Positions 8,318-62,299 of a stretch of 64,000 nucleotides of DNA are shown here, in pieces. The notes beneath the pieces are model-generated. The model was not told the DNA's origin. It saw only the letters and a list, made by a program, of their open reading frames with translations, and made no database searches. The DNA comes from Mustelus asterias. Lineage: Eukaryota. The translations under genes and the position numbers were made by a program. The stretch is from the NCBI RefSeq assembly GCF_964213995.1, contig NC_135811.1, positions 48,422,001 through 48,486,000 on the forward strand, given 5' to 3'. Position 1 is the stretch's first letter. Every line of letters begins with the position of its first letter.

Positions 8318-9322
8318 ATAACAAAACAAAAGAACAATACAGCACAGGAACAGGCCCTTCGGCCCTCCAAGCCCGCGCCGCTCCCTGGTCCCAACTAGAC
8401 CATTCTTTTGTATCCCTCCATTCCCACTCCGTTCATGTGGCTATCTCGATAAGTCTTAAACGTTCCCAGTGTGTCTGCCTTCACCACCTTCACGTCCTTC
8501 AGGTACTGTGGCGACCAGAACTGGGCGCAGTATTCCAAATGCGGCCGAACCAACGTTCTATACAACTGCAAAATCAGACCCCAACTTTTATACTCTATGC
8601 CCCGTCCTATAAAGGCAAGCATGCCATATGCATTATTCACTACCTTCTCCACCTGTGACGTCACCTTCAAGGATCTGTGGACTTGCACACCCAGGTCCCT
8701 CTGCGTATCTACACCCTTTATGGTTCTGCCATTTATCGTATAGCTCCCCCCTACGTTAGTTCTACCAAAATGCATCACTTCGCATTTATCTGGATTGAAC
8801 TCCATCTGCCATTTCTTTGCCCAAATTTCCAGCCTATCTATATCCTTCGGTAGCCTCTGACAATGTTCCTCACTATCTGCAAGTCCAGCCATTTTTGTGT
8901 CATCCGCAAACTTACTGATCACCCCAGTTACACCTTCTTCCAGATCGTTTATATAAATCACAAACAGCAGAGGTCCCAATACAGAGCCCTGCGGAACACC
9001 ACTAGTCACAGGCCTCCAGCCGGAAAAAGACCCTTCCACTACCACCCTCTGTCTTCTGTGACCAAGCCAGTTCTCCACCCATCTAGCCACCTCCCCCTTT
9101 ATCCCATGAGATCCAACCTTTTGCACCAACCTACCATGAGGGACTTTGTCAAACGCTTTACTAAAGTCCATATAGACGACATCCACGGCCCTTCTCGCGT
9201 CAACCATTCTAGTCACTTCTTCAAAAAACTCCACCAGGTTAGTGAGGCAGGACCTCCCTCTCACAAAACCATGCTGACTATCGTTAATGAGTTTATTCCT
9301 TTCTAAATGCGCATACATCCTA
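8318..9322 (-). mobile_element. CR1 LINE, 5'-truncated, with internal deletion
   Basis: RT motifs QHGF, DFSKAFDKV, GVPQGSVLGP, FADD; CR1 3' tail gggcctgttcctgtgctgtattgttc. Confidence 0.93.
8395..9322 (-). pseudogene. CR1 ORF2 RT-domain fragment, open but lacking the endonuclease
   Basis: ORF 8395-9360; the first ~13 codons are flanking DNA. Confidence 0.85.
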
Positions 9323-10194
9323 TGGATGTGGGGGGCAGATTGACTTACTAGGAAGAACATATAAGATGTTCACATCTGCAAGCAATGGCAAGATCAGCTG
9401 TGCTGAGTGTGGGTAGGCTTTTAGTCTCCAAGTTTTGGGCTGAAAGGAGAGAGAGGGGTCTCACGGAGGCGAAAGACTACAATTAGTGTGTAGTCAGCAG
9501 AGACGAAGCTATGAATTTCCTGCAATTTACTGGACAGAATGAGGAAGGTACACAGTCTCTGGTTAAAGATATGTATCCTGTGGCCATTTGAGGAATCCAC
9601 AAGACACGTCCTAGCTCATCCGAAAGGGGAAAGAATCGCTGACAAAGGCCTTATTGCTGTCAGCTTGGGAATTCTCCAGAAACTGGGAGAAACACCTTTT
9701 GGTCATCACTCGTTGTTACAATTTGGCAAATTGGGGAGTGACAAACCTATTCGAAGCTGAGGATGATGTTTGACTGTTTCTTATAAAAGGGAAATATAAC
9801 TGATGTGGGCTTTTCAGTGATGTTATAAAGTTAAATGGGGAATATCCTTTCTGTAGAGTATAACTTGCGGACTAAATAGTGTTTAGTTAATGTTGCCTTT
9901 AGTTTGTTACCATAAAAATTTTTAAACTTAACATCTTGTTTAGCCTTTAATTTAAATTTTCAAAGTTATCTCTATGGGGGTCATTAAACGTTTATAACTT
10001 CAGGATCGTGTTTGGTGCTTTGTAATCAATTAAGTGGTTCTGAAGTGTAGTCACAAACATTATAAGACAAGGTTAGTTTATTCCACTGCCATCAAAACTG
10101 AAGAAACTTTCTAATAACGCATAACTGCAAGATACAAACTATTTACAGAAAATATTCCCCGCCAATCCTCCAGATGTCCGTCCTAATTTAGGGA

Positions 10195-19995: not shown

Positions 19996-20335
19996 GGCGG
20001 CACGGTAGCACAGTGGTTAGCACTGCTGCTTCACAGCTCCAGGGTCCCGGGTTCGATTCCCGGCTCGGGTCACTGTCTGTGTGGAGTTTGCACATTCTCC
20101 TCGTGTTTGCGTGGGTTTCCTCCGGGTGCTCCGGTTTCCTCCCACAGTCCAAAGATGGGCGGGTTAGGTTGATTGGCCAGGTTAAAAATTGCCCCTTAGA
20201 GTCCTGGGATGCATAGGTTAGAGGGATTAGTGGGTAAATATGTGGGGGTAGGGCCTGGGTGGGATTGTGGTCGGTGCAGACTCGATGGGCCGAATGGCCT
20301 CCTTCTGCACTGTAGGGTTTCTATGATTTCTATGA
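19996..20335 (+). mobile_element. HE1 V-SINE (CR1 tail)
   Basis: Full-length copy. Confidence 0.9.
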
Positions 20336-20408
20336 GACCACTCCTTTTAATTTCCCACCAAGTTATCCATTATAATCAACGTATTTGTTTAATTCTATGA
20401 AATGCTGT

Positions 20409-21586: not shown

Positions 21587-22581
21587 GTGCCATCTTCTGT
21601 TTTGTGTGATAGGAGGGCTCCAATCCCATAGGGTGAAGCATCACAAGTTAAGGTTATCTGTTTGTCTGGGACAAAGTGAACTAGTAATCAGATGATTGTA
21701 GAGACAGCTTAATCTTTCTGAAGGCCTGTTGTTGCGGGTCTCCCCAGTGCTAGTGCTGATATTTGTTTTAAGAGATGGTGCAGAGGCACTAACATTGATG
21801 CTGGGTTTGGCATAAAACGGCCGTAATAGTTGACCATACCCAGAAATTATTTTAATTCTCTGACATTTCTTGGTGCAGGAACCTATCTGATTTCTTTCAG
21901 CTGATCTTCTAGGCGGTGTAGGCGTTTGACGTCAACTTTAATCCCTAGATACATTACTTCACTGGCCTGAAAAGTGCACTTGTCCCTCTTCAGTCTTATA
22001 CTAGCAGTTCTAAACCTCTTGAGGACTTTCTCCAGGTTGGTCAGATGCTCTTCCTGTGAAGTCTCTGTCACCAGGACGTTGTTCAAACGCACCATGGCTT
22101 TTGCGATTCCTTGTAGTAAATTCTCCATTATTCGTTGGAAAATTTGCACATGATATACCGAAAGGTAACTGTGTATATTGGAAAAGTCCCTTGTGTGTGT
22201 TGATAGTTGCATATGTTCTGGATTCTTCGGTTAGTTCAAGTCATAAGTAAACATATCTTAAATTTGTATATATGAGGCCCCCTGACAGCTTTGGGTAAAT
22301 ATCTTCTATCCTAGGTATCAGATACGTGTCAAGTTGGGCCGCTTGGCGTATGATGAGTTTGTAATCGCCACAGATCCTGACGGTATGGTCTGGTTTCAGC
22401 ACAGGAACAATGGGGGTTGCCCACTTGGAGAACTGTACTGGCCTTATAACTCCTGATTCCTCCAAACGCTTCAATTCAGCATTGACTTTCTGATGTAGAG
22501 TGTATGGAATGGGCCGAGTTCTAAGCAATTTTGGTATGAATTGGGGTTCTCATATATTTTGGCCTTGACCCCTTTTATCTT

Positions 22582-23774: not shown

Positions 23775-24072
23775 TGATGCGCGATATAACACACGAGAGG
23801 CGTGATGTACTCAGGAAATAAAGGCTTTTATTGCCAACAATAACAGAGCTACCATATACAGTATTCGATCCCAGACTAAAGGGTCACCAGGCAGAGCAGT
23901 GACCTTTATACCTCTCCCAGGAGGCGGAGCCGACTGGGGTGTACCATAACAACTATATTAACAGGTAGAACAGCCCAACCCTAACCCAAACAGTAACATA
24001 TCTACAGACTCATAGTACTGGCCAGATCATGGGTCAGCACTACCTGGTGGGAACCAACAATGGTTCACCACA
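23775..24072 (-). repeat. 3' LTR of Gypsy A
   Basis: Direct repeat of 28192-28489; PPT aaaggaggggtgaa immediately upstream on the minus strand. Confidence 0.95.
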
Positions 24073-24135
24073 TTCACCCCTCCTTTGAAAACAAAGGCCG
24101 GCGGGGTACAAAACACAGAACAATTGTTCATCTGT

Positions 24136-27100
24136 CTATAAGTTCAAACGGTCTGGGGGACCGCACCGTCGCTGTGACCTCCTCAACACCGGCGATGACA
24201 CCGGTTCAGGCAATCGCGGTGACGTTCTCTCCAAGGCGGTGTCCAGCGACTCCTCCAGTTCCTCACGGGCCGGTAGACCCCGAGGTGGTGACAATCCGCT
24301 GAACTCGGGCACGCCTTGAAGTGGCGACCATCTCCTGGACTCAGGCAAGCTGTACACGGGAGTAAGAGGGTTAAGTGGTGGTCCCGATACTGCCCGCGCC
24401 GTGTCAGGAGGGGAAATAATGGTTGGGGGGTCCCTAACAGGAGGTGTGGGAGCGACAGTCGTTTCCAAGCCCCCTGCTGGCGCCAGATCTCGAATCGAGA
24501 CTGTGTCCTCTCGCCCGTCAGGATATGCCACGTAGGCATACTGAGGGCTGGCGTGGAGGAGATGGACCTGTTCAACCAAAGGGTTGGACTTGCGGGTCCT
24601 AACATGTCGCCGCAGGAGGACAGGTCCTGAGTACGTCAACCAAGACGGTAATGAGGTCCCCGAGGAAGACTTCCGAGGGAATGAAAACATTCTCTCATGA
24701 GGAGTAGCGTTGGTTGCCGTACACAGGAGTGAGCGTATGGAGTGGAGCGCATCAGGGAGTACCTCTTGCCAACGGGAGACTGGAAGACCTTTAGACCTCA
24801 ACGCCAGTAAGACAGCCTTCCAGACTGTAGCATTCTCACGTTCGACCTGTCCATTACCCCTTGGGTTGTAGCTCGTGGTTCTACTAGAGGCAATCCCATA
24901 TGAGAGCAGGTATTGCCTCAAGTCATCGCTCATGAACAACGAGCCCCTATCGCTGTGGATATAACAGGGGTAACCGAACAGAGTGAAAAGATCACGAAAT
25001 GCCTTGGTAACCGTGGCAGCGGTCATATCAGAACAGGGAATGACAAAGGGGAATCGTGAGTACTCATCAACCACATTGAGGAAGTACACATTCCGATCTG
25101 TCGAGGGAAGGGGGCCCTTAAAGTCCACACTCAATCTTTCGAATGGACGAGTGGCCTTAACGAGTTGTGCCCTGTCAGGTCGGTAGAAGTGCGGTTTGCA
25201 TTCCGCGCATACCCGGCAGCTTCTGGTTATGGACCTGACATCCTCCACCGAGTAGGGTAGATTCCGGGCTTTTATGAAGTGGAAGAGCCGAGTGACCCCT
25301 GGATGGCAGAGGTCATTGTGGAGAGCCTGCAATCGATTCTCCTGCATACTAACGCATGTTCCACGCGACAGGGCATCCGAGGGCTCGTTGAGCTTCCCTG
25401 GACGATACATGATATCATAATTGTAGGTGGAGAGTTCGATTCTCCACCTCAAGATCTTATCATTCTTGATCTTACCCCATAACGTGTTGTTGAACATGAA
25501 CGTCACGGACCGCTGGTCCGTGAGCAGAGTGAACCGTTTTCCTGCCAAGTAATGGCGCCAATGCCGAACGGCCTCCACAATGGCCTAGGCCTCCTTTTCC
25601 ACCGCCGAATGTCGAATTTCAGGGCCTTGGAGGGTGCGAGAGAAAAAGGCGACGGGCCTGCCCACCTGGTTAAGTGTGGCAGCCAGGGCGAAATCAGATG
25701 CATCACTCTCCACCTGGAAGGGGATGGACTCATCGATAGCATGCATCGTGGCTTTCGCGATGTCGGCTTTTATTCTTGCAAAGGCTAAGCGAGCCTCTGG
25801 TGCGAGGGGAAAAGAGGGAGACTTGATGATCGGACGGGCTTTGTCCGCGTAATTGGGAACCCACTGTGCGTAGTATGAGAAGAAGCCTAAGCATCTTCTC
25901 AGTGCTTTGACGCTAGTGGGCAGGGGATGTTCGAGGAGAGGACGCATACGGTCTGGATCAGGGCCAAGGACCCCGTTTTCCACCACGTATCCGAGGATAG
26001 CTAGGCGGCGCGTGCGAAAAACACACTTCTCCCTGTTGTAGGTCAGATTCAGGCGAGATGCAGTGCGTAAGAATCTAAGAAGGTTGGCATCGTGGTCCTG
26101 CTGGTCATGGCCGCAGATGGTGACGTTATCCAGGTACGGGAAGGTAGCCTGCAGTCCGTTCTGGTCCACCATTCGGTCCATAGCACGCTGGAGACCGAGA
26201 CCCCATTCGTGACACCAAAAGGAACCCTTAAAAAATGGTACAGGCGACCATCCGCCTCAAAGGCCGTGTATTGTCGGTCCTCTGGGCGAATGGGGAGCTG
26301 GTGGTAAGCAGATTTTAAGTCGATGGTGGAGAACACCCGGTACTGCGCAATCTGGTTGACCATGTCAGATATGCGCGGGAGGGGATACGCATCCAGCTGC
26401 GTGTATCTGTTAATGGTCTGACTATAGTCTATGACCATCCGGGGTTTGTTCCCATTCTTAACCACCACGACTTGCGCTCTCCAAGGACTAGCGCTAGGTT
26501 GGATGATCCCTTCCTTGAGGAGCCGCTGAACTTCAGATCGAATGAAGATCCGATCCTCAGCGCTGTAACACCTGCTCTTTGTTGCGATGGGCTTGCAGCC
26601 TGGCACGAGATTCTGGAACAGGGAGGGTGTGGTAATCCTAAGCGTTGAGAGACTACATGTGGAGCGTGTTGGGCAATTTAGAGGCTGCGGGTCTCCCACT
26701 GAAAGCGGAGGGAGTGGCCCACCGTACTGCAGGGTTACACTCTTCAAGTGGACCATAAAATCTAGTCCTAGGAATATTGGCGCGCAAAGGTGTGGTAACA
26801 CAAGGAGCTTGAAGTTCTTGTAAACCGTGCCCTGCACCGTCAGATTGACCACGCAACTCCCTAGCACGGTGACAGACCGGGACCTTGACGCCATCGAAAT
26901 TGTCTGCTTGACAGTTCGAATCTGGAGACCACACCGCTTCACGGTGTCTGGGTAAATGAAGCTTTCCGTGCTCCCGCTGTCAAACAAACAATAAATCGGG
27001 CGTTTGTTTACCTGTATGTCCATCATGGACTTGTCGAGTCTGTGAGGCTTGGCCTGGTCCAGGATGATCGACGCCACCGTTGGTTCGTGGGCGCAACTGC

Positions 27101-28130
27101 AGGCAGCTGAGATGGTTGATGACGACCCCTGCTGGTCATTCGCGGTCGGTGCCGACCAAAATGGCTGCCCCCATAGGTCGCACGTGGACGATGGCGCCAG
27201 AACCTGCGGCCCCTGCAGGTCGCACGTGTCTTGCGACTCCGTCGTTCGGAATGGCGACGTCCTGGAGTCGCACGTGGTAGAAGACCTTGAAGATGCAGAA
27301 GACAAGGAGGCCGGCTCCGGGGAGTCACACGCCGCACTGCTGTTCTTGGATGGAAGTTTGGACCGACAGACCTTGGAATAGTGCCCCTTCTTGCCGCAGG
27401 CGGAGCACAACACTGCTTTTGCTGGACATCGCTGCCGAGGGTGTTTCACCCCCCCACAGAAGTAACACCGCGGGCCACCTGGAGCTGCTGCCGTCATCAG
27501 GTCCGAGGCTGGGAACGCAATCGCGCAGTTTTTCGGTCCCGCTGAATGAAGTGGGGTCTGTGACTGCCCCTGCCACGCTGTCTCCACGTGGTCGTCGGGG
27601 TACATCGCCAGACTTTTGGAGGCCGTTTCTAGAGCGTCAGCTAACTCTATGGATTTAGTGAGATCGAGGTTACCTTGCTCCAACAGCCGAAGGCGGATGT
27701 ACGACGAGCCGATTCCCGCCACGAACGCATCTCGAGCTAGGTCGTTCATGTACTGGTCTGCCGACACTGACTTGCAGTTGCAGGCTCTGGCTAGCTACTG
27801 AAGCTCACACGCGTACTGTTCCGTCGTTTCGCCGGGCTGCCGCCGTCGAGTGGCTAGAAGGTATCGAGCATGGATCTCATTCGGCGGTTTGTTGTATCGC
27901 TTCTTGAGAAACTCGAGGGCCCCTTTGTAGTCGGTGGCCCCACGGATCGCTAGGTATACAGCGTCGCTTACCCTCGTGTGGAGAACCCGGAGTCTGTCGG
28001 CGTCGTCGGTGACCGCTGTGGAGGCGTCGAGGTAATCCTGGAAACACTTCAACCAGTGGTTGAAAGTGTTCGATGCTCCCGCCGCACGTGGGTCCAACGT
28101 AAGCCGTTCGGGTTTAAGCATTTGCTCCAT
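24136..28130 (-). pseudogene. Single gag-pol ORF of Gypsy A with three lesions (TAG 27795, frameshift ~26190, TAG 25585)
   Basis: Double CCHC knuckle, PR LFDSGS, RT PFG/YLDN, RH DASD, IN HHCC and D-D-E. Confidence 0.93.
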
Positions 28131-28175: not shown

Positions 28176-28190
28176 TTGTTGGCAATAAAA
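28176..28190 (-). promoter_or_regulatory. Non-tRNA PBS-position sequence of A, complementary to its own LTR (28243-28257)
   Basis: Sense TTTTATTGCCAACAA, 1 nt from the LTR end; no TGG. Confidence 0.75.
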
Positions 28191-28191
28191 T

Positions 28192-28489
28192 TGATGCCCC
28201 ATATAACACACGAGAGGCGTGATGTACTCGGGAAATAAAGGCTTTTATTGCCAACAATAACAGAGCTACCATATACAGTATTCGATCCCAGACTAAAGGG
28301 TCACCAGGCAGAGCAGTGACCTTTATACCTCTCCCAGGAGGCGGAGCCAACTGGGGTGTACCATAACAACTATATTAACAGGTAGAACAGCCCAACCCTA
28401 ACCCCAACAGTAACATATCTACAGACTCATAGTACTGGCCAGATCATGGGTCAGCACTACCTGGTGGGAACCAACAATGGTTCACCACA
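28192..28489 (-). repeat. 5' LTR of Gypsy A (TATAAA at 28322-28327, AATAAA at 28244-28249, minus strand)
   Basis: Direct repeat with promoter and poly(A) motifs. Confidence 0.95.
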
Positions 28490-28679
28490 CTCCCCCTCTG
28501 GCCACACTGTAGTTCGAAGGCGTCCTTTTTGGTGCTTTCAGTGGCTTGAGCTCATTCTATTGCTCTGTCCAGGGATAGCTTTGTTTCTGCTAACAGCTTC
28601 CTTTGGATATTCAGGTTGTTAATGTCGCAAACCAATTAATTTCCCCGTGGCGTAACAGGAACCGGAAACGTTCAGCACT

Positions 28680-29410
28680 ATACCCCCTCATTAAACCCCC
28701 TTCACCTCACTCCCACACCCCTTCAATAAAACCTCCACCTCACCCCCACACCCCCTCAATAAACCCTCTTCGCCTCACCCCCACACCCCCCTCAATAAAC
28801 CCCCTTTGCTTCACCCCACACCCTCTCAATAAACCTCCTTCGCTTCACCCCCACACCCCCTGAATAAACCCCCTTTGTCTCACCCCCAAACCCCCTCAAT
28901 AAACCCCCTTTGCTTCACCCCCTCAATAAACCCCCTTCACCTCACCCCTAAACCCCCTCAATAAACCCCCTTTGCCTCATCCCCACACCCTCTCAATAAA
29001 CCTCCTTCGCTTCACCCCCACACCCCCTGAATAAACCCCCTTTGTCTCACCCCCAAACCCCCTCAATAAACCCCTTTGCCTCACCCCCACACCTCCTCAA
29101 TAAACCCTCCTCCTTACCCCTAAATCCCCTCAATAAACCCCCTCCTCCCCCACATCTCCTCAATCAACCCCCTCCACCTCATCCCCAAATCCCCTCAATA
29201 AACCTCCTCTGCCTCAACACCAAACCCCTTCAATAAACCCTCCATCTTTTCCCTAAACCCCCTCAATAAACCCTCACCTCATCCCTAAACTCCCTCAATA
29301 AACCCACTTGCCTCATCCCTAAAGCCCCTCAATAAAAGCCCTCATCACTAAATCCCCACCTGCACTCTTAAACCCCTCACAATAACTAACCCGCTCAATA
29401 AAACCCCAAA
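28680..29410. repeat. C-rich minisatellite, ~33-35-bp unit, about 20 copies
   Basis: Unit ~ccccctcaataaaccccctttgcctcaccccaca. Confidence 0.9.
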
Positions 29411-32687: not shown

Positions 32688-33011
32688 GGGGTGGCACGGT
32701 GGCACAGTGGTTAGCACTGCTGCCTCACAGCTTCAGAGATCTGGGTTCGATTCCCGGCTTGGGTCACTGTCTGTGTGGAGTTTGCACATTCTCCCCATGT
32801 CTGCATGGGTTTCCTCCAGGTGTTCTGGTTTCCTCCCACAGTCCAAAGATGTGCGCGGGTTAGATGGATTGGCCATGCTAAATTGCCCCTTAGTGTCAGG
32901 GGATTAGCAGGCTCAATACGTTACGGGGTCAGAGCCTGGGTGGGATTGTTGTCAGTGCAGGCTTGATGGGCCGAATGGCCTCATTCTGCACTGGGATTCT
33001 ATGATTCTATG
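32688..33011 (+). mobile_element. HE1 V-SINE
   Basis: Full-length copy. Confidence 0.9.
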
Positions 33012-33360
33012 AAATATTATGGAATAGAATATGGAAACTGTGTGCACAGAGGCAGGCACATGCCTGGTCAGCTTTGTCGGCGGGACTTTGAATTTGTAGC
33101 TATGGGACTTCTGCCATGACAGAAAGCATCTCGATCGTGGCAAAAATCCCAGCTATCGTTGAGAAAAGATTTAAATCTGTTTTGTTTCACGGACAGGAGA
33201 GAGATGCTCGAATGGTTTCCCCTTTTCCCACCTCTCGACTGTCCACAGCAAGATGTGTCTGAAATGTTTCAACCCCCTTGAGTGTTGCGGTTCTAGAACA
33301 GACACAAGATAGATTTTCTTGTAAGTTTAAACAAAGGAAGAATTAATGTTTATTTCTCAA

Positions 33361-38573: not shown

Positions 38574-38889
38574 TGATGCGCTATTCAAACACGAGGCTTG
38601 AAGCTCAGTAAATGAAAGGCTTTTATTTACTGTAACGAAGCTACCAGAACTTATATACACTATCCCAGACTGAAGGGGTCCCGGCCAGAGCAGGGACTCT
38701 TATACCTCTCCCAGGAGGCGGAGCCCAACTGGGATGTGCCACAACACTACAGTACAAAGGTGTAACAACCCCACCCTAACCCCAACAGCAACAATAGCAC
38801 AACCCAACAGTAACATATGTACATCCTTGTAGTACTGGCCAGCCCCTGGCTCAGCACTATCCAGTGGGAACCAACGATGGTTCACCACA
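38574..38889 (-). repeat. 3' LTR of Gypsy B
   Basis: TG...CA; direct repeat of 42981-43291. Confidence 0.95.
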
Positions 38890-38952: not shown

Positions 38953-41900
38953 CTATAAGTTCAGACGGTCAGGGGGACCGCACCGTCGTTGTGACCTCCT
39001 CAATACCAGCGGTAACACCGGAGTAGGCACTTGCGGTGGCGTTCTCCCCAAGGCAGCGTCCAGCTGTTCTTCCATGGACTCACAGGCCGGTTGACCCTGA
39101 GGTGACGGTAGTCCATGGGATCCTGACCCGCCCTGCGGTGGCGACCATCTTCTGGGCTCAGGCAAGCTGTACATGGGAGTAAAATGGTTAAGCAATGGTC
39201 CCGATGCTGCCTGCGCCGTGTCCGGGGAAGAAACAAGAGATAAAGGGTTTGTTACCGGGGGTATGGGAGTGACAGGGGTTGCTACGTCCCCTGCTGGCGC
39301 CAGGTCTCGGATCGAGACCGTGTCCTCTCGCCCGTCAGGGTATGCCACATAGGCATACTGAGGGTTGGCGTGGAGGAGATGGACCTGTTCGACCAACGGG
39401 TCGGACTTGCGGGCCCTTACATGTCGCCGCAGGAGGACGGGTCCTGAGTACGTCAACCAAGATGGTAATGAGGTCCCCGAGGAAGACTTCCGAGGGAATG
39501 AGAACATCCTCTCATGGGGAGTAGCATTGGTTGCCGTACACAGGAGGGAGCGAATAGAATGGAGCGCATCAGGGAGCACCTCTTGCTAACGGGAGACTGG
39601 AAGGCCTTTTGACTTCAACGACAGTAAGACAGCCTTCCAGACTGTAGCATTCTCACGTTCCACCTGTCCGTTACCCCTAGGGTTGTAGCTCGTGGTCCTA
39701 CTAGAGGCAATCCCGTATGAGAGCAGGAATTGCCTCAAGTCATCGCTCATGAATGACGAGCCCCTGTCGCTATGGATGTAGCCGGGGTACCCGAACAGGG
39801 TAAAGAGATCACGGAATGCCTTGATAACCGTGGCAGCGGATGTATCAGAGCAGGGAACAACAAAAGGGAACCGAGAGTACTCGTCAATGATATTGAGGAA
39901 GTACACATTCCGATCTGTTGAGGGAAGGGGGCCCTTAAAATCGACACTCAGTCTCTCGAAGGGACGAGTGGCCTTGACTAAATGTGCCCGGTCAGGTTGG
40001 TAAAAGTGCGGTTTGCATTCCGCGCAAACCCGACAGCTCCTTGTTACTGACCTGACGTCCTCCACCGAGTAAGGCAGGTTGCGGGCTTTTATAAAGTGGT
40101 AGAGCCGAGTGACCCCAGGATGGCACAGGTCATTATGGAGGGCGTGCAAACGGTCCTCCTGTATACTAGCACATGTTCCACGCGAGAGGGCATCCGAGGG
40201 CTCATTGAGTTTCCCTGGACGGTACATGATGTCGTAGTTATAGGTGGAGAGTTAAATTCTCCACCGCAAGATCTTGTCATTCTTGATCTTGCCCCTCTGT
40301 GTGTTGTTAAACATGAACGCCACGGACCGCTGGTCAGTGATCAGGGTGAACCGTTTTCCCGCCAAGTAATGGCGCCAGTGCTTGACGGCCTCCACAATGG
40401 CCTGGGCCTCCTTTTCCACCGCTGAATGCCGAATTTCGGGGCCTTGGAGGGTGCGGGAAAAAAATGCGACGGGCCTGCCCGCCTGGTTAAGTGTGGCGGC
40501 CAGGGCGAAATCAGATGCATCGCTCTCCACCTGAAAGGGGATGGACTCGTCTACAGCGTGCATCGTAGCTTTCGTGATGTCGGCTTTCAATTTATCGAAG
40601 GCCAATCGGGCCTCTGGCGTTAAGGGAAAAGTCGTGGACTGAATGAGCTGACGGGCTTTATCTGCGTAGTTGGGAACCCACTGTGCATAATAAGAGAAGA
40701 AGCCTAAGCATCTTCTCAGTGCTTTTGCACTAGCAGGTAAAGGAAGTTCAGAAAGGGGGCGCATACGGTCTGGATCAGGGCCAATGACCCCGTTTTCCAC
40801 CACGTATCCTAGGATGGCTAAACGGCGCGTACGAAACACACACTTCTCCCTGTTGTAGGTCAAGTTCAGGCGAGATGCAGTGCGTAGGAAGTTCAGGAGA
40901 TTTGTGTCGTGGTCTTGCTGGTCATGGCCGCAAATGGTGACATTATCCAGGTACGGGAAGGTAGCCCGCAGCCCGTTCTGGTCCACCATTCGGTCCATAG
41001 CACGCTGGAAGACCGAGACCCCATTGGTGACACCAAAGGGAACCCTGAGAAAGTGATACAAGCGACCATCCGCCTCAAAAGCTGTGTATTGTCGGTCCTC
41101 TGGGCGAATGGGGAGTTGGTGGTAGGCAGACTTGAGGTCTATGGTGGAGAACACCCGATACTGCGCAATCTGATTGACCATATCAGATATGCGCGGGAGG
41201 GGATACGCATCCAGCTGCATATATCGGTTAATGGTCTGACTGTAGTCAATGACCATCCGGGGTTTGTTCCCGCTCTTGACCACCACGACCTGCGCTCTCC
41301 ACGGACTAGCACTGGGTTGTATGATCCTTTCTTTGAGGAGCCGCTGAACCTCAGATCTAATGAAGATCCGATCCTCAGTGCTGTAACGCCTACTTTTAGT
41401 CGCGATGGGCTTGCAGCCTGGCACAAGATTCTGGAACAAGGAGGGTGTGGTGATCTTCAGCGTCGAGAGGCTGCAGGCTGCGTTGGGCAATTTGGAGGCT
41501 GCTGCTGTTTTCCCACTGCCAGTGAAGGGAGTGGCCCACCGTACTATAGGATTACACTCCTCAAGTGGACCATGAAATTTAGTCCGAGAAGTATTGGCGC
41601 GCAAAGATACGGCAACACAAGGAGCTTGAAACGCTCGTAAACTGTGCCTTGCACCTTCAAGGTTACCACGCAACTCCCTAGCACGGCAACAGACTGGGAC
41701 CTTGATGCCATAGAGATTGTCTGTTTGGCAGGTTGAATCTGGAGTCCACGCCGCTTCACAGTGTCTGGGTGGATAAAGCTCTCAGTGCTCCCGCTATCAA
41801 ACAGACAATAAATCACGTGGTCATTTACCTGGATATTCATCATAGATTTGTCAAGTCTATGAGGCTTGGCCTGGTCCAGGGTGATCGACGCCACCGTTGG

Positions 41901-42932
41901 TTCATGAGCGCCACTGCAGGCAGCTGAAGTCGATGAGGAGGACCCCTGCTGGTCGTTCGTGGTCAGTGTCGACCAACATGGCTGCCCCCATGAGTCGCAC
42001 GTGGGTGAGGGCGCCAAACTCAGCGACCCCTGGTGGTCATACTCCTCCAACTCCGTCGACCGTAATGGCGTCGTCCTGATCTCGCATGTGGACGAACCCC
42101 GCGATGACTTCGACGATGAAGACCCGAGCTCTGAAGAATCGCAGGCCGCACTGCCGTTCCTGGGTTTAGATCGGCACACTTTTGAATAATGCCCTTTTTT
42201 ACCGCATGCGGTGCACAACACAGCTTTAGCGGGACACTTTTGCCGAGTATGCTTCGCTCCTCCACAGAAATAGCACTGCGGGCCGCCCGGGGCTGCTGCC
42301 GTCGTCTGGCCCGAATGGGAGCACGCCATTACGCAGCATTTCGAACCCGAGGGACGAGGAGGGATTAGCGACTGCTCCTGCCACGTTGTCTCCACATGGT
42401 CCTCCGGATATAATACTAAGCTTTTGGAGGCCGTCTCGAGCATCTCTGCTAACTCGATGGCCTGGGTAAGATTAAGATTACCCTTCTCCAACAGTTTAAG
42501 TCGAATGTACGACGATCTGACCACAAACGCATCTCGGGCGAGGTCGTTCATGCTCTGCTCAGCCGACACAGCTTTGCAGTCACAGCCCCTGGCTAGCTGT
42601 AGGAGCTCGTTCGCATATTCCTCCATCGTTTCGCCAGACTGCCGTCGTCGAGTGGCTAGGAGGTAACGAGCGTGTATCTCATTAGGTGGTTTGGTATAGC
42701 GCTTCTTCAGAAGCTCGAGGGCCTTAGTATAATCGGTGGCCGCACGGATCGCGAGGTAGACAGTGTCACTTACCCTCCCATGGCGGACCCGGAGTCTGTC
42801 ATCATCTGTGGTGACCGCTGCGGAGGCTGCCAGGTAGTCTTCGAAACACTTCAGCCAGTGGTCGAAGGTGTTAGAAGCGCCCACCGCACGTGGATCTAGC
42901 GTAAGGCGTTCCGGCTTCAGAATTTGCTCCAT
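38953..42932 (-). pseudogene. gag-pol of Gypsy B (stops at 41544, 40252, 39586; frameshift ~41480)
   Basis: Collinear with A across gag, PR, RT (YLDN), RH and IN. Confidence 0.93.
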
Positions 42933-42966: not shown

Positions 42967-42979
42967 ACAGTAAATAAAA
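42967..42979 (-). promoter_or_regulatory. Non-tRNA PBS-position sequence of B, complementary to its own LTR (43028-43040)
   Basis: Sense TTTTATTTACTGT, 1 nt from the LTR end. Confidence 0.75.
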
Positions 42980-42980
42980 T

Positions 42981-43291
42981 TGATGCGCTATTCAGACACG
43001 AGGCTTGAAGCTCAGTAAATGAAAGGCTTTTATTTACTGTTAACGAAGCTACCAGAACTTATATACACTATCCCAGACTGAAGGGGTCCCGGCCAGAGCA
43101 GGGACTCTTATACCTCTCCCAGGAGGCGGAGCCCGACTGGGATGTGCCACAACACTACAGTACAAAGGTGTAACAACCCCACCCTAACCCCAACAGCAAC
43201 AATAGCACAACCCAACATATGTACATCCTTGTAGTACTGGCCAGCCCCTGGCTCAGCACTATCCAGTGGGAACCAACGATGGTTCACCACA
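42981..43291 (-). repeat. 5' LTR of Gypsy B
   Basis: Direct repeat; TATAAG at 43107-43112 (minus). Confidence 0.95.
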
Positions 43292-49063: not shown

Positions 49064-49971
49064 GTTACAGACCTGGATAATACAAAATGGGAGAGAATTC
49101 CCACTTTGGGCACAGTCGGTGATTCTGGTGCACATTTTGCCCAAGATAGAGCTGACTCAACTTGTCCATGTCCTTTTGAAGTTCTACACTGTCTTCTTCA
49201 CAGTTTACAGTACTCCCAAGTTTTGTGTCATCCACAAACTTTGAAATTGTCCCCTGCACACCAATATTTAGATCATTAATATATATATATAAAAACAAGG
49301 GACCCAATACCGATCCCTGGGGATCACCAATATAAACCTTCCTCCAGCCCAAAAAATACCTATTGACTATTACTCTCTGCTTCCTATTATTAAGCCAATT
49401 TTGTATCCACGTTGCTACTGTCCCTTTTACTCTATGAGCTTTCGCTTTTCTCATGAGTCTGTTGTGCGGCACTTTATCAAATGTCTTTTGAAAGTCCATG
49501 TATCCCATATCAACTGCATCACCCTCATCAACCCTTTCTATTACATCATCAAAAAACTCCAGCATGTTAGTTAAACACAATTTCCTCTTTATAAATCCAC
49601 ATAGGCTCTTCCTAATGAACCCATATTTTTCCATGTGACTACTGATTTTATCCTGAATAATTGTTTCAAGAAGCTTGCCCACCACTGATGTGGAACTGGC
49701 TGGTTTGTAATTGCTGGGGCTATATATCTTTTTGAACACGGGCGTAACATTTGCAACTCTCCAGTCTTTTGGCATTTTCCTGCATCTAGAGAAGACTGCA
49801 GGATTTTGACCAGCACCCCTTCAATTTCCACTCTAACTTCCTTCAATATCCTTGGAAGCATCTCATCCGATCTCAGTGCTTTGTTAACTTTGAGTACTGA
49901 GAGGCTACTTAGCACTTCCACATCAATTTTGAACCTTTTTAGGGACAGAGTTTCCTTGTCTGTCGCCATGT

Positions 49972-56260: not shown

Positions 56261-56550
56261 CTTTTGGGTTCCCTCACTCTGGATTGTCAAGCCATGCTCC
56301 ATTCACATTACTCACCATTCACTCGCTCTGCACTTCCTCAACTCCCCCTTTCCCCATCCAACAATCTCACTCATCCCAAAGATCCTTATGTGATGTGATG
56401 GCACCTCTGGATTCTCAACATATGACCTTAAAGAGAACTGTCGGCACATCCTCCGATACATGCCAGTACCCACTTGTGGGACATCCATTGAATGTGCACA
56501 TGCACCTTACTAACATTGGCCACTTTGGAGGAGAAAAGAGCACAAAAGAG

Positions 56551-56857
56551 AGTGGCATAGTGGTTAGCACGGCAGCCTCACAGCGCCAGGGACCCGGGTT
56601 CAATTCTGGCCTCAGGTGACTGTATGGAGTTTGCACATTCTCCCCGTGTCTGCGTGGGTTTCCTCCGGGTGGTCCGGTTTCCTCCCACAGTCCAAAGATG
56701 TGCGGGTTAGGTTGATTGGCCATGCTAAATTGCCCCTTAGTGTCGGGGGGTCTGCAGGGTAATACATGGGGTTACGGGAATGGGGGCTGGGTGGGATTGT
56801 TGTTGGTGCAGGCTCGATGGGCCAAATGGCCTCCTTCTGCACTTTAGGGATTCTATG
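56551..56857 (+). mobile_element. HE1 V-SINE
   Basis: Full-length copy. Confidence 0.9.
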
Positions 56858-57892
56858 AAAATCTTCGGGTGAAGGTGAGGATAGGAGATGGATCACTAAC
56901 CACACTGTGGAAGTGTCAATCGCAGGGCCGGAGGGATTGAGGATATGAAGCATGCCAGCATCCCTGAGCAATGGAGATGGTGAGACTCAGACTTGAGTGC
57001 TGCACAGTGACAGCATTAAATACCACCAGCCCACATCTTCATTCCAGCACCGAATGAAATATGATCACAGTAATGATGTGAATAGTTATAGCCCCCATGA
57101 CTAAATCCTCTCCATCTCTCCTCTCCTGCAGGGCCATCATGTGTGATGTGATGATGCCTCACCACAAGACACATGTGTGCAGCACCAGTGCACGTACCCG
57201 CATTTTGGTAGCTCCTGTTAGATGAGCTTTCCCTCGATTGATCGTACATCACAAGTGAATACGCGCAGAGAGTCGTGCTAGGGAAAGCTATGGAGAGCTC
57301 ATGTCAGAGGGCCCAGTACTCTGCGAGTTCTGCTTAACCGGACAGAGTTATGGAACCCAGTGTGTCTCTATGTAATGGAGAATGATAGAGGGTCAGCAAT
57401 AACTGGGTGCAGACGCACTGATCACATTGTTCCGGAGGATGGAGATCAACTCCAACATTTGCAGATTGATGTTGCAAGGCCCTGGTGAGGATCTCTTCCA
57501 TGGATGCAGTGTCCTCCTCGGTGGAAGTTGAACTGCAGCAGTTTCTGCCATTCTGATGAAGGCTGTGCAAACTGTGGACATCTCTGTCGAGAATGACAGA
57601 TACACTAGCTGTGGCCTTGCAAGGAGTTGCTGATTTGCCTCAAGTTGCCCTCCCACAGTGAAGTAGGGGAGGTGTGGCTGTTAGCCTTGGAGGCAGAGAA
57701 TGACAAAAGGGGACAAGGATGTGGGAATTCCATTTAAAAAGCACTCAGGTCTTGTGTGTAACCCCCCCCCCCCCCCCCCCTCGCCCCCAGTGATCTACCC
57801 TGTGTGAACACCTCAGAGCCCTACAGGTAAGTCTCACGCCAAATATTGTCACCAAACCATATCCTAGCGGGAACTGAGAAAACAGCCGTGAA

Positions 57893-61371: not shown

Positions 61372-61684
61372 AGGCAGCACGGTGGTTAGCACTGCTGCCT
61401 CACAGCGCCAGGGACCGGGGTTCGAATCCAGCCTTGGGTGACTGTCCATATGGAGTCTGCACGTTCTCCCCGTGTCTGCGTGGGTTTCCTGCAGGTGCTC
61501 CGGTTTTCTCCTACAGTCCAAAGATGTGCTGGTTAGGTTGATCGGCCATGCTAAATTGTCCCTTAGTGTCAGGGGGATTAGCAGGGTAAATATGTAGGGT
61601 TACAGGGATAGGGTCGGGTGGGATTGTTGTTGGTGCATGCTTGATGGGCTGAATGGCCTCCTTCTGTACTGTAGGAATTCTATG
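61372..61684 (+). mobile_element. HE1 V-SINE
   Basis: Full-length copy. Confidence 0.9.
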
Positions 61685-62299
61685 AAGGTGCTCTTTGATT
61701 TAACATCAGCTGTCCATCTTATAAGCAGATCTTGCAACCCCTACAATCCCAAGTGCAACATTTTTGCCCCAGTACTTACTTCACAAGAAGGATTAATATG
61801 TACATATACAACTACTTCAATCTGACACGTGCTGCCATTTGTGTTCCCTCTGTCTTTAGGGACAGTAGAATGAAAAGCATGCTGGTGATTTGAGGTATAT
61901 TGTAAACAGGATTATCTGGCATTAAATACATGACTGAACAGGACACAGTTTTCACAATGAGGCTAACTGATTTCTTCCAACATCCTTGTGGTGATTGTCT
62001 CTTCAAGGGCAACACAGCAGAGTAAGGATCACATAGCTTGCGTGACCAATCGGGACTCAGAGTGTGGAATCACGCCATGGTGAGAGAGGCTCCTAGGCAG
62101 GCATTTTGGGAGCTAGATACAGCCCATGCAAGTTACTGTACAATTCTTATTAATAAATACCTTTTGTGAATGAAGTCTTTGGAAGTGCACCTTTCCAACC
62201 CTGTACCATTAAAATGAATGTAGCACTGCCTCAGTGAACTCACTTCTGAGCTGGTTAATCTCAAAGCTAACTGTTCGGATCTTCTTCTTTTGCATTCAG

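Follow-up and report, generated by a model that had tools for sequence, protein, structure and literature searches.

Two Ty3/Gypsy elements in the window

The window, the whole 64,000-nucleotide stretch of the Mustelus asterias genome that was analysed, contains two LTR elements, A and B, of ∼4.7 kb each. Both lie on the minus strand and encode, by Pfam assignment, gag, protease (PR), reverse transcriptase (RT), RNase H and integrase (IN) in the Ty3/Gypsy order, with an overall identity of 82% to each other. Their features are as follows.

28192–28489, minus strand: 5′ LTR of A, TG...CA; a 5-bp target duplication, GGGAG, flanks the two LTRs
28176–28190, minus strand: primer-binding position of A, 15 nt complementary to its own LTR at 28243–28257
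24136–28130, minus strand: gag-PR-RT-RNase H-IN region of A, broken
26125–26136, minus strand: RT motif C of A, YLDN, aligning with YLDD of Ty3
24073–24088, minus strand: polypurine tract of A
23775–24072, minus strand: 3′ LTR of A, 97.7% identical to the 5′ LTR
42981–43291, minus strand: 5′ LTR of B; flanks of the element CATGG/CAAGG
42967–42979, minus strand: primer-binding position of B, 13 nt complementary to its own LTR at 43028–43040
38953–42932, minus strand: gag-PR-RT-RNase H-IN region of B, broken
40942–40953, minus strand: RT motif C of B, YLDN (TAC CTG GAT AAT)
38574–38889, minus strand: 3′ LTR of B, 97.2% identical to the 5′ LTR

The target duplication of B is 5 bp long with one mismatch. 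The reading frame of A shifts near 26193 and contains two in-frame stops; that of B shifts near 41478 and contains three. Both window copies are dead. The sequence-only reading had taken both as young insertions with near-identical LTRs, which calls for correction: the identities measured are 97.7% for A and 97.2% for B, and both copies are defective.

The assignment to Ty3/Gypsy follows from gag preceding PR-RT-RNase H-IN, the TG...CA LTRs, the polypurine tract and the short target duplication. The YxDD motif, which is typical of this superfamily but does not define it, is replaced by YLDN here, and is kept by 70 of 206 members of the wider clade described below. By sequence, the RT is nearest to that of Ty3 (E = 9e-41, compared to 5e-27 for caulimovirus RT), whereas a ranking by fold places caulimovirus RT first and Ty3 second. 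Of the named metazoan Gypsy clades (Mag, CsRN1, Cigr-1 and MolGy), Cigr-1 is a tentative lead for placing the clade. The LTR start of the family, TGTGGTG, matches the CsRN1 motif TGTGGYG given in PMC3601003.

The window holds other repeats. An old, degraded RT remnant of another Gypsy-like family (21781–22486, minus strand), ∼28% identical to the YLDN family, has a frameshift, stops and an eroded motif C. LINE-type RT fragments at 8395–9369 and 49065–49820 (minus strand) carry ordinary FADD and FVDD motifs. A C-rich tandem array with a unit of ∼35 nt (28670–29340, plus strand) lies just outside the 5′ LTR of A; tandem arrays also host two insertions elsewhere in the genome (L099 and L116). Many copies of a repeat of SINE type, which starts with a tRNA-like part and may resemble the shark HE1 SINE, are also present (for example 20004–20341, 32698–33022, 56547–56873 and 61373–61700).

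Motif C of the reverse transcriptase

Textbooks treat the three catalytic aspartates of reverse transcriptases as invariant, and in annotation YxDD serves to judge whether an element is active or dead. On the reverse complement, motif C reads TAC CTG GAT AAC in A and TAC CTG GAT AAT in B, confirming YLDN with different Asn codons in the two elements; the context, FPYLDNVTICG, is common to both. Alignment of the family with the YLDD-containing RT of Ty3 (4OL8; phmmer, E = 9e-41) places the Asn opposite Ty3 D214 (residue numbering as in PMC5371799). The two other deviating stretches that had been pointed out, SPWRAQVVVV and RMVIDYSQTIN, are both found in the window RT translations, and are shared clade-wide by members with Asp and with Asn.

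The different codons had been used to argue that Asn predates the split of A and B. The AAC codon is followed by GTC and so forms a CpG (AAC|GTC), and AAC and AAT both segregate inside each of two subfamilies. Because the site is a CpG that is polymorphic within both subfamilies, the codon argument is weak; the conclusion that Asn is older than the split nevertheless stands.

YLDN in the genomic family

A codon pattern for PYLDNVTICG has 9,898 matches in the 3.68-Gb genome, compared to none for the reversed control pattern, which argues that the Asn is due neither to chance nor to decay. The YLDD version of the pattern has 16 matches, and YLDS, a control transition at the same codon, has 27 (p = 0.13); a looser clade pattern finds N 10,964 times and D 31 times. 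Thus, the family consensus is YLDN; a YLDD consensus would have undone the original proposal.

We fetched 52 sister copies, which are not a random sample since they were selected for long open reading frames (ORFs). All 52 carry YLDN, and in 41 of them none of the RT, RNase H and integrase motifs examined is missing; sister copies have a single ORF of ∼1,330 residues. The LTR alignments are 100% identical in 9 of 32 loci (L097–L128), two of these nine alignments being partial, and 5-bp target duplications are present at most of the 32. In all 28 pairs formed by eight natural copies of different subfamilies, the dN/dS of RT is 0.03–0.11, with dS reaching 0.69, and in most pairs it does not exceed that of integrase. 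This copy number, the intact young sisters and the strong purifying selection on RT uphold the view that an active lineage tolerates Asn. We conclude from these sequence comparisons that YLDN is a real, selected and recurrent variant of an active Ty3/Gypsy lineage.

Two further observations concern the subfamilies. Loci L098–L111 and L116 (e.g. G000:C5:68645200-68651200) form a very young subfamily in which ATTAAA replaces AATAAA in the LTR, with the primer site altered in step (TTTAAT...). In the same pairs of copies (L031–L128), synonymous divergence in gag is often above 1.8, compared to about 0.4–0.6 in RT, a gap that may reflect recombination among subfamilies.

Recurrent Asp/Asn switching among animal relatives

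Among the best 120 of 977 homologs, 96 have xxDN, 23 xxDD and one another motif. Proteins with a named source carry Asn in Actinostola, a sea anemone, and in five further cartilaginous fish, and Asp in Trichuris, Ischnura and Cydia. Of 150 cluster representatives, the motif was read in 149. Those with an identity of 40% or more have N in 44 cases, D in 49 and another residue in 2, whereas DN occurs in 0 of 54 representatives below 40% identity, which are outside Gypsy RTs. Eighty metagenome loci gave 58 N and 16 D, with six unread. We found no relative among viral contigs. NCBI lists two members of the clade, P0011 and P0027, as proteins of bacterial MAGs; animal sequence contaminating the metagenome bins is their probable source.

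The tree was built after excluding 11 of 270 proteins whose cover was short or gapped, and with 18 of 53 outgroup rows. Its 206 ingroup rows group on a single branch (FastTree, support 100), within which D prevails on the deepest branches. Two of the three aspartates hardly vary, the one in motif A being kept in 205 rows of 206 and the first one of motif C in 204. The third catalytic site has N in 134, D in 70 and another residue in 2, and is the only one of 404 columns with such a two-state pattern. The D/N label changes 22 times on this tree, with a mean of 69 for shuffled labels, and 9 of the changes are forced by starred branches; some of the lone D rows may be mutated single copies. With a hand-picked subset of 55 rows, the IQ-TREE analysis forces 10 changes, and a tree that unites all N rows in one clade is rejected (p-AU = 1.6e-33). 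A starred group of 30 rows that contains all cartilaginous-fish rows has N in 29, and in this group the third base of the Asn codon varies freely. Asn is thus recurrent across animals, and both trees indicate that the clade has switched between D and N at least 9–10 times.

A possible permissive background and the third aspartate

The sequence-only reading had suggested that compensating residues might accompany the Asn. No column was found to co-switch with the D/N state among the 30 best-associated columns listed, a comparison of low power with about 9 supported independent pairs, and this part of the proposal was not supported. Many positions do set most of the clade apart from the Gypsy RTs outside it, whichever of D and N a member carries. 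These include, numbered on the open frame of copy L031, R607 and Q609 (SPWRAQ) and S626 and T628 (DYSQTIN, in which the Arg of DYR is lost) in the fingers; G699-V700 of motif B (GVTNGV), which are typical of the clade (G699 in 179 of 206); and T727 (+2, Thr in 169 of 206) and G730 (+5) beside motif C. The RNase H carboxylates are intact, and Q929 replaces the His after the third of them (TDQ for TDH). An AlphaFold model of a natural copy (pLDDT 91) predicts a standard RT-RNase H arrangement, to be read at the level of the fold and not of contacts.

Because no column tracks the D/N state, the case for a permissive background is drawn solely from these clade-wide changes. They make such a background plausible. 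Engineered Ty1 D211N is partly rescued, to 5–10%, by suppressors in the RNase H domain, as described in PMC2148107.

It is also possible, although we consider it doubtful, that no special compensation is needed: many RTs would tolerate loss of the third Asp, its lethal effect would be a peculiarity of the Ty1 and Ty3 enzymes, and the family would be active with or without special compensation. The intact nematode BEL/Pao elements with YVDN and the failure to find a co-switching residue fit this simpler account. It is harder to reconcile with the distribution of DN (134 of 206 inside the clade, compared to 0 of 54 in outside Gypsy RTs), with the clustering of the state inside it (22 changes against the shuffled mean of 69), and with the retention of N in 29 of 30 rows of the cartilaginous-fish-containing group while the third codon base is free to vary.

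Primer site and probable self-priming

One base 3′ of the 5′ LTR, both A and B have 13–15 nt complementary to their own LTR. The paired LTR stretch spans a poly(A)-like hexamer (AATAAA in the partner of A, 28243–28257) and ends in the hexamer ∼47–51 nt before the LTR end. The primer-site letters differ between A and B. An LTR-complementary site of at least 11 nt (11–15 nt) is present in 47 of the 52 sisters, in 13 variants whose letters co-vary with the LTR. Folding of the whole strand around the primer region was not unusual compared to shuffled sequences (z = −1.45 and 0.69), although the LTR/primer-site helix appears in both predicted structures; the support for the helix is therefore the co-variation.

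We scanned the metagenome loci for the same hairpin. A matched gag start was available in 46 of 80 loci, of which 44 could be scored and 38 had a motif call, with L166 counted as N since it reads YLDN. The hairpin occurs in 26 of 32 YxDN loci, many of which are near-copies from one assembly, and in 4 of 6 YxDD loci (L155, L157, L173 and L188, with 12–16 nt), compared to at most 9 nt in control windows. Since YxDD members also possess the site, it is a trait of the clade, and the specific tie between Asn and non-tRNA priming that had been suspected is not supported. The element's own RNA is probably the primer of reverse transcription, whether a member carries D or N.

Asn could still be an adaptation of RT to such priming, for instance if it made an RNA primer easier to extend or less prone to be excised, in keeping with the co-occurrence of Asn and self-complementary sites in the clade, the co-varying sites of the 47 sisters, and the ∼320-fold reduction of pyrophosphorolysis by Ty1 D211N given in PMC2148107. 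We regard this as unlikely, as the same site is found in four of the six scored YxDD members and D states recur nested among N lineages. Self-priming, being clade-wide, does not explain the Asn.

Search for a YxDD helper

The proposal would also fail if YLDN copies depended on a YxDD helper. A motif-pattern search of the whole genome, which a divergent YxDD element could escape, found no amplified YxDD helper of the clade. We examined 30 distinct D-pattern loci, each of which is either a sporadic member of a YLDN subfamily or unrelated (LINE-like, other elements or noise). The YLDD copies of the clade are scattered across subfamilies and 86–97% identical to the nearest other D copy, with the exception of one local duplicate pair (99.8%), and most contain stops or frame breaks.

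Mobilization in trans, with an inactive YLDN RT, would agree with the failure of equivalent yeast mutants to transpose and with the existence of a few genomic YLDD copies. We consider it very improbable: few domains of the YLDN elements are as constrained as RT, whereas an RT whose function was supplied in trans would escape strong constraint, and the candidate donors are scattered, mostly broken and no commoner than YLDS, the remaining D-pattern matches being LINE-like, other elements or noise. Decay or sequencing error in two dead copies, to which the broken state of A and B and the single G-to-A transition from D to N might point, is refuted by the genomic YLDN, YLDD and YLDS counts, by the intact young sisters among ∼10,000 copies with Asn, and by Asn in named proteins of other animals, five cartilaginous fish and one sea anemone, and has almost no probability left.

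Proposed explanation

The best explanation, which we hold with considerable confidence, is that A and B belong to a high-copy, recently mobile Ty3/Gypsy family in which YLDN is the normal, selected state, and whose RT very likely copies its own elements with two catalytic aspartates. The motif-A Asp and the first motif-C Asp would hold the metals, and the third position would require merely a side chain with the shape of Asp or Asn. Polymerization would survive the D-to-N change, as it does in yeast biochemistry, and the element's own RNA would prime reverse transcription whichever residue is present. In the weakest step of this scheme, the clade-wide changes in the fingers, in motif B, beside motif C and in RNase H would form a permissive background that removes the in vivo penalty seen in Ty1 and Ty3. 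The counterweight, by analogy, is that the same change is reported to cut the kpol of Ty1 223-fold and to abolish transposition of both Ty1 and Ty3.

A broader reading, which we offer only tentatively and short of an outright preference, is that a self-priming animal Ty3/Gypsy clade has rebuilt its RT active site. The third Asp would then be optional in vivo, the Asp/Asn switch would tune speed, processivity or metal use, and the clade-wide changes of fingers, palm and RNase H would act as natural suppressors of the defect found in Ty1 D211N and Ty3 D214N.

The contrast to be explained is that loss of the third Asp is fatal in Ty1 and Ty3 and not in the YLDN family. A YxDN family with ∼10,000 copies, identical LTRs and an RT dN/dS near 0.05 provides strong population evidence on a question left open in the BEL/Pao literature, and at least 10 natural D/N switches supply matched enzyme pairs for asking what the third Asp does.

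Comparison with known systems

Tf1 employs a self-priming mechanism. Tf1/sushi chromoviruses, like the YLDN family (here by sequence only), have a primer site complementary to their own LTR or transcript. They differ in carrying a C-terminal chromodomain on the integrase, for which the 482-residue integrase ORF of element A gave no Pfam chromo match. Hairpin priming in chromoviruses is mentioned in PMC3601003.

Ty3 RT (4OL8; D151, D213 and D214) is the best sequence match among solved structures, with the same domain order and fold. According to PMC5371799, Ty3 D214N is still active but less processive, and transposition is lost. This is a laboratory mutant, whereas the Asn of the YLDN family is a natural, selected state. 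Ty1 D211N represents the same substitution and is open to rescue by background, but it is engineered and belongs to the Copia superfamily; PMC2148107 describes polymerase activity kept in vitro, with kpol reduced 223-fold, and transposition lost. The statement that the equivalent change in Ty1 leaves polymerization and blocks transposition was therefore correct, and Ty3 behaves similarly.

The literature searched, which covered few subscription journals and had Repbase and GyDB outside its scope, yielded no Ty3/Gypsy precedent for YxDN. The motif itself is not unique, a point missed by the sequence-only reading: natural YVDN has been described in nematode BEL/Pao elements (PMC9094657 and its preprint), namely C. 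elegans Cer7–Cer12 and the Ancylostoma Atlas virus, the LTRs of the latter being 100% identical (PMC9094657). PMC554778 credits YVDN to Bowen and McDonald and left the activity of this type of RT undetermined. These intact LTR elements show the same natural Asp-to-Asn change at the last position of YxDD. They have a triple Cys-His gag box and an atypical env, in contrast to the two CCHC boxes, lack of env, ∼10,000 copies and D/N-switching clade of the YLDN family. As BEL/Pao is another superfamily, DN probably arose independently in the two. Thus, a natural DN oddity was already known from nematode BEL/Pao elements, and what is added here is a Ty3/Gypsy case with unusually strong population evidence and a repeated D/N switch.
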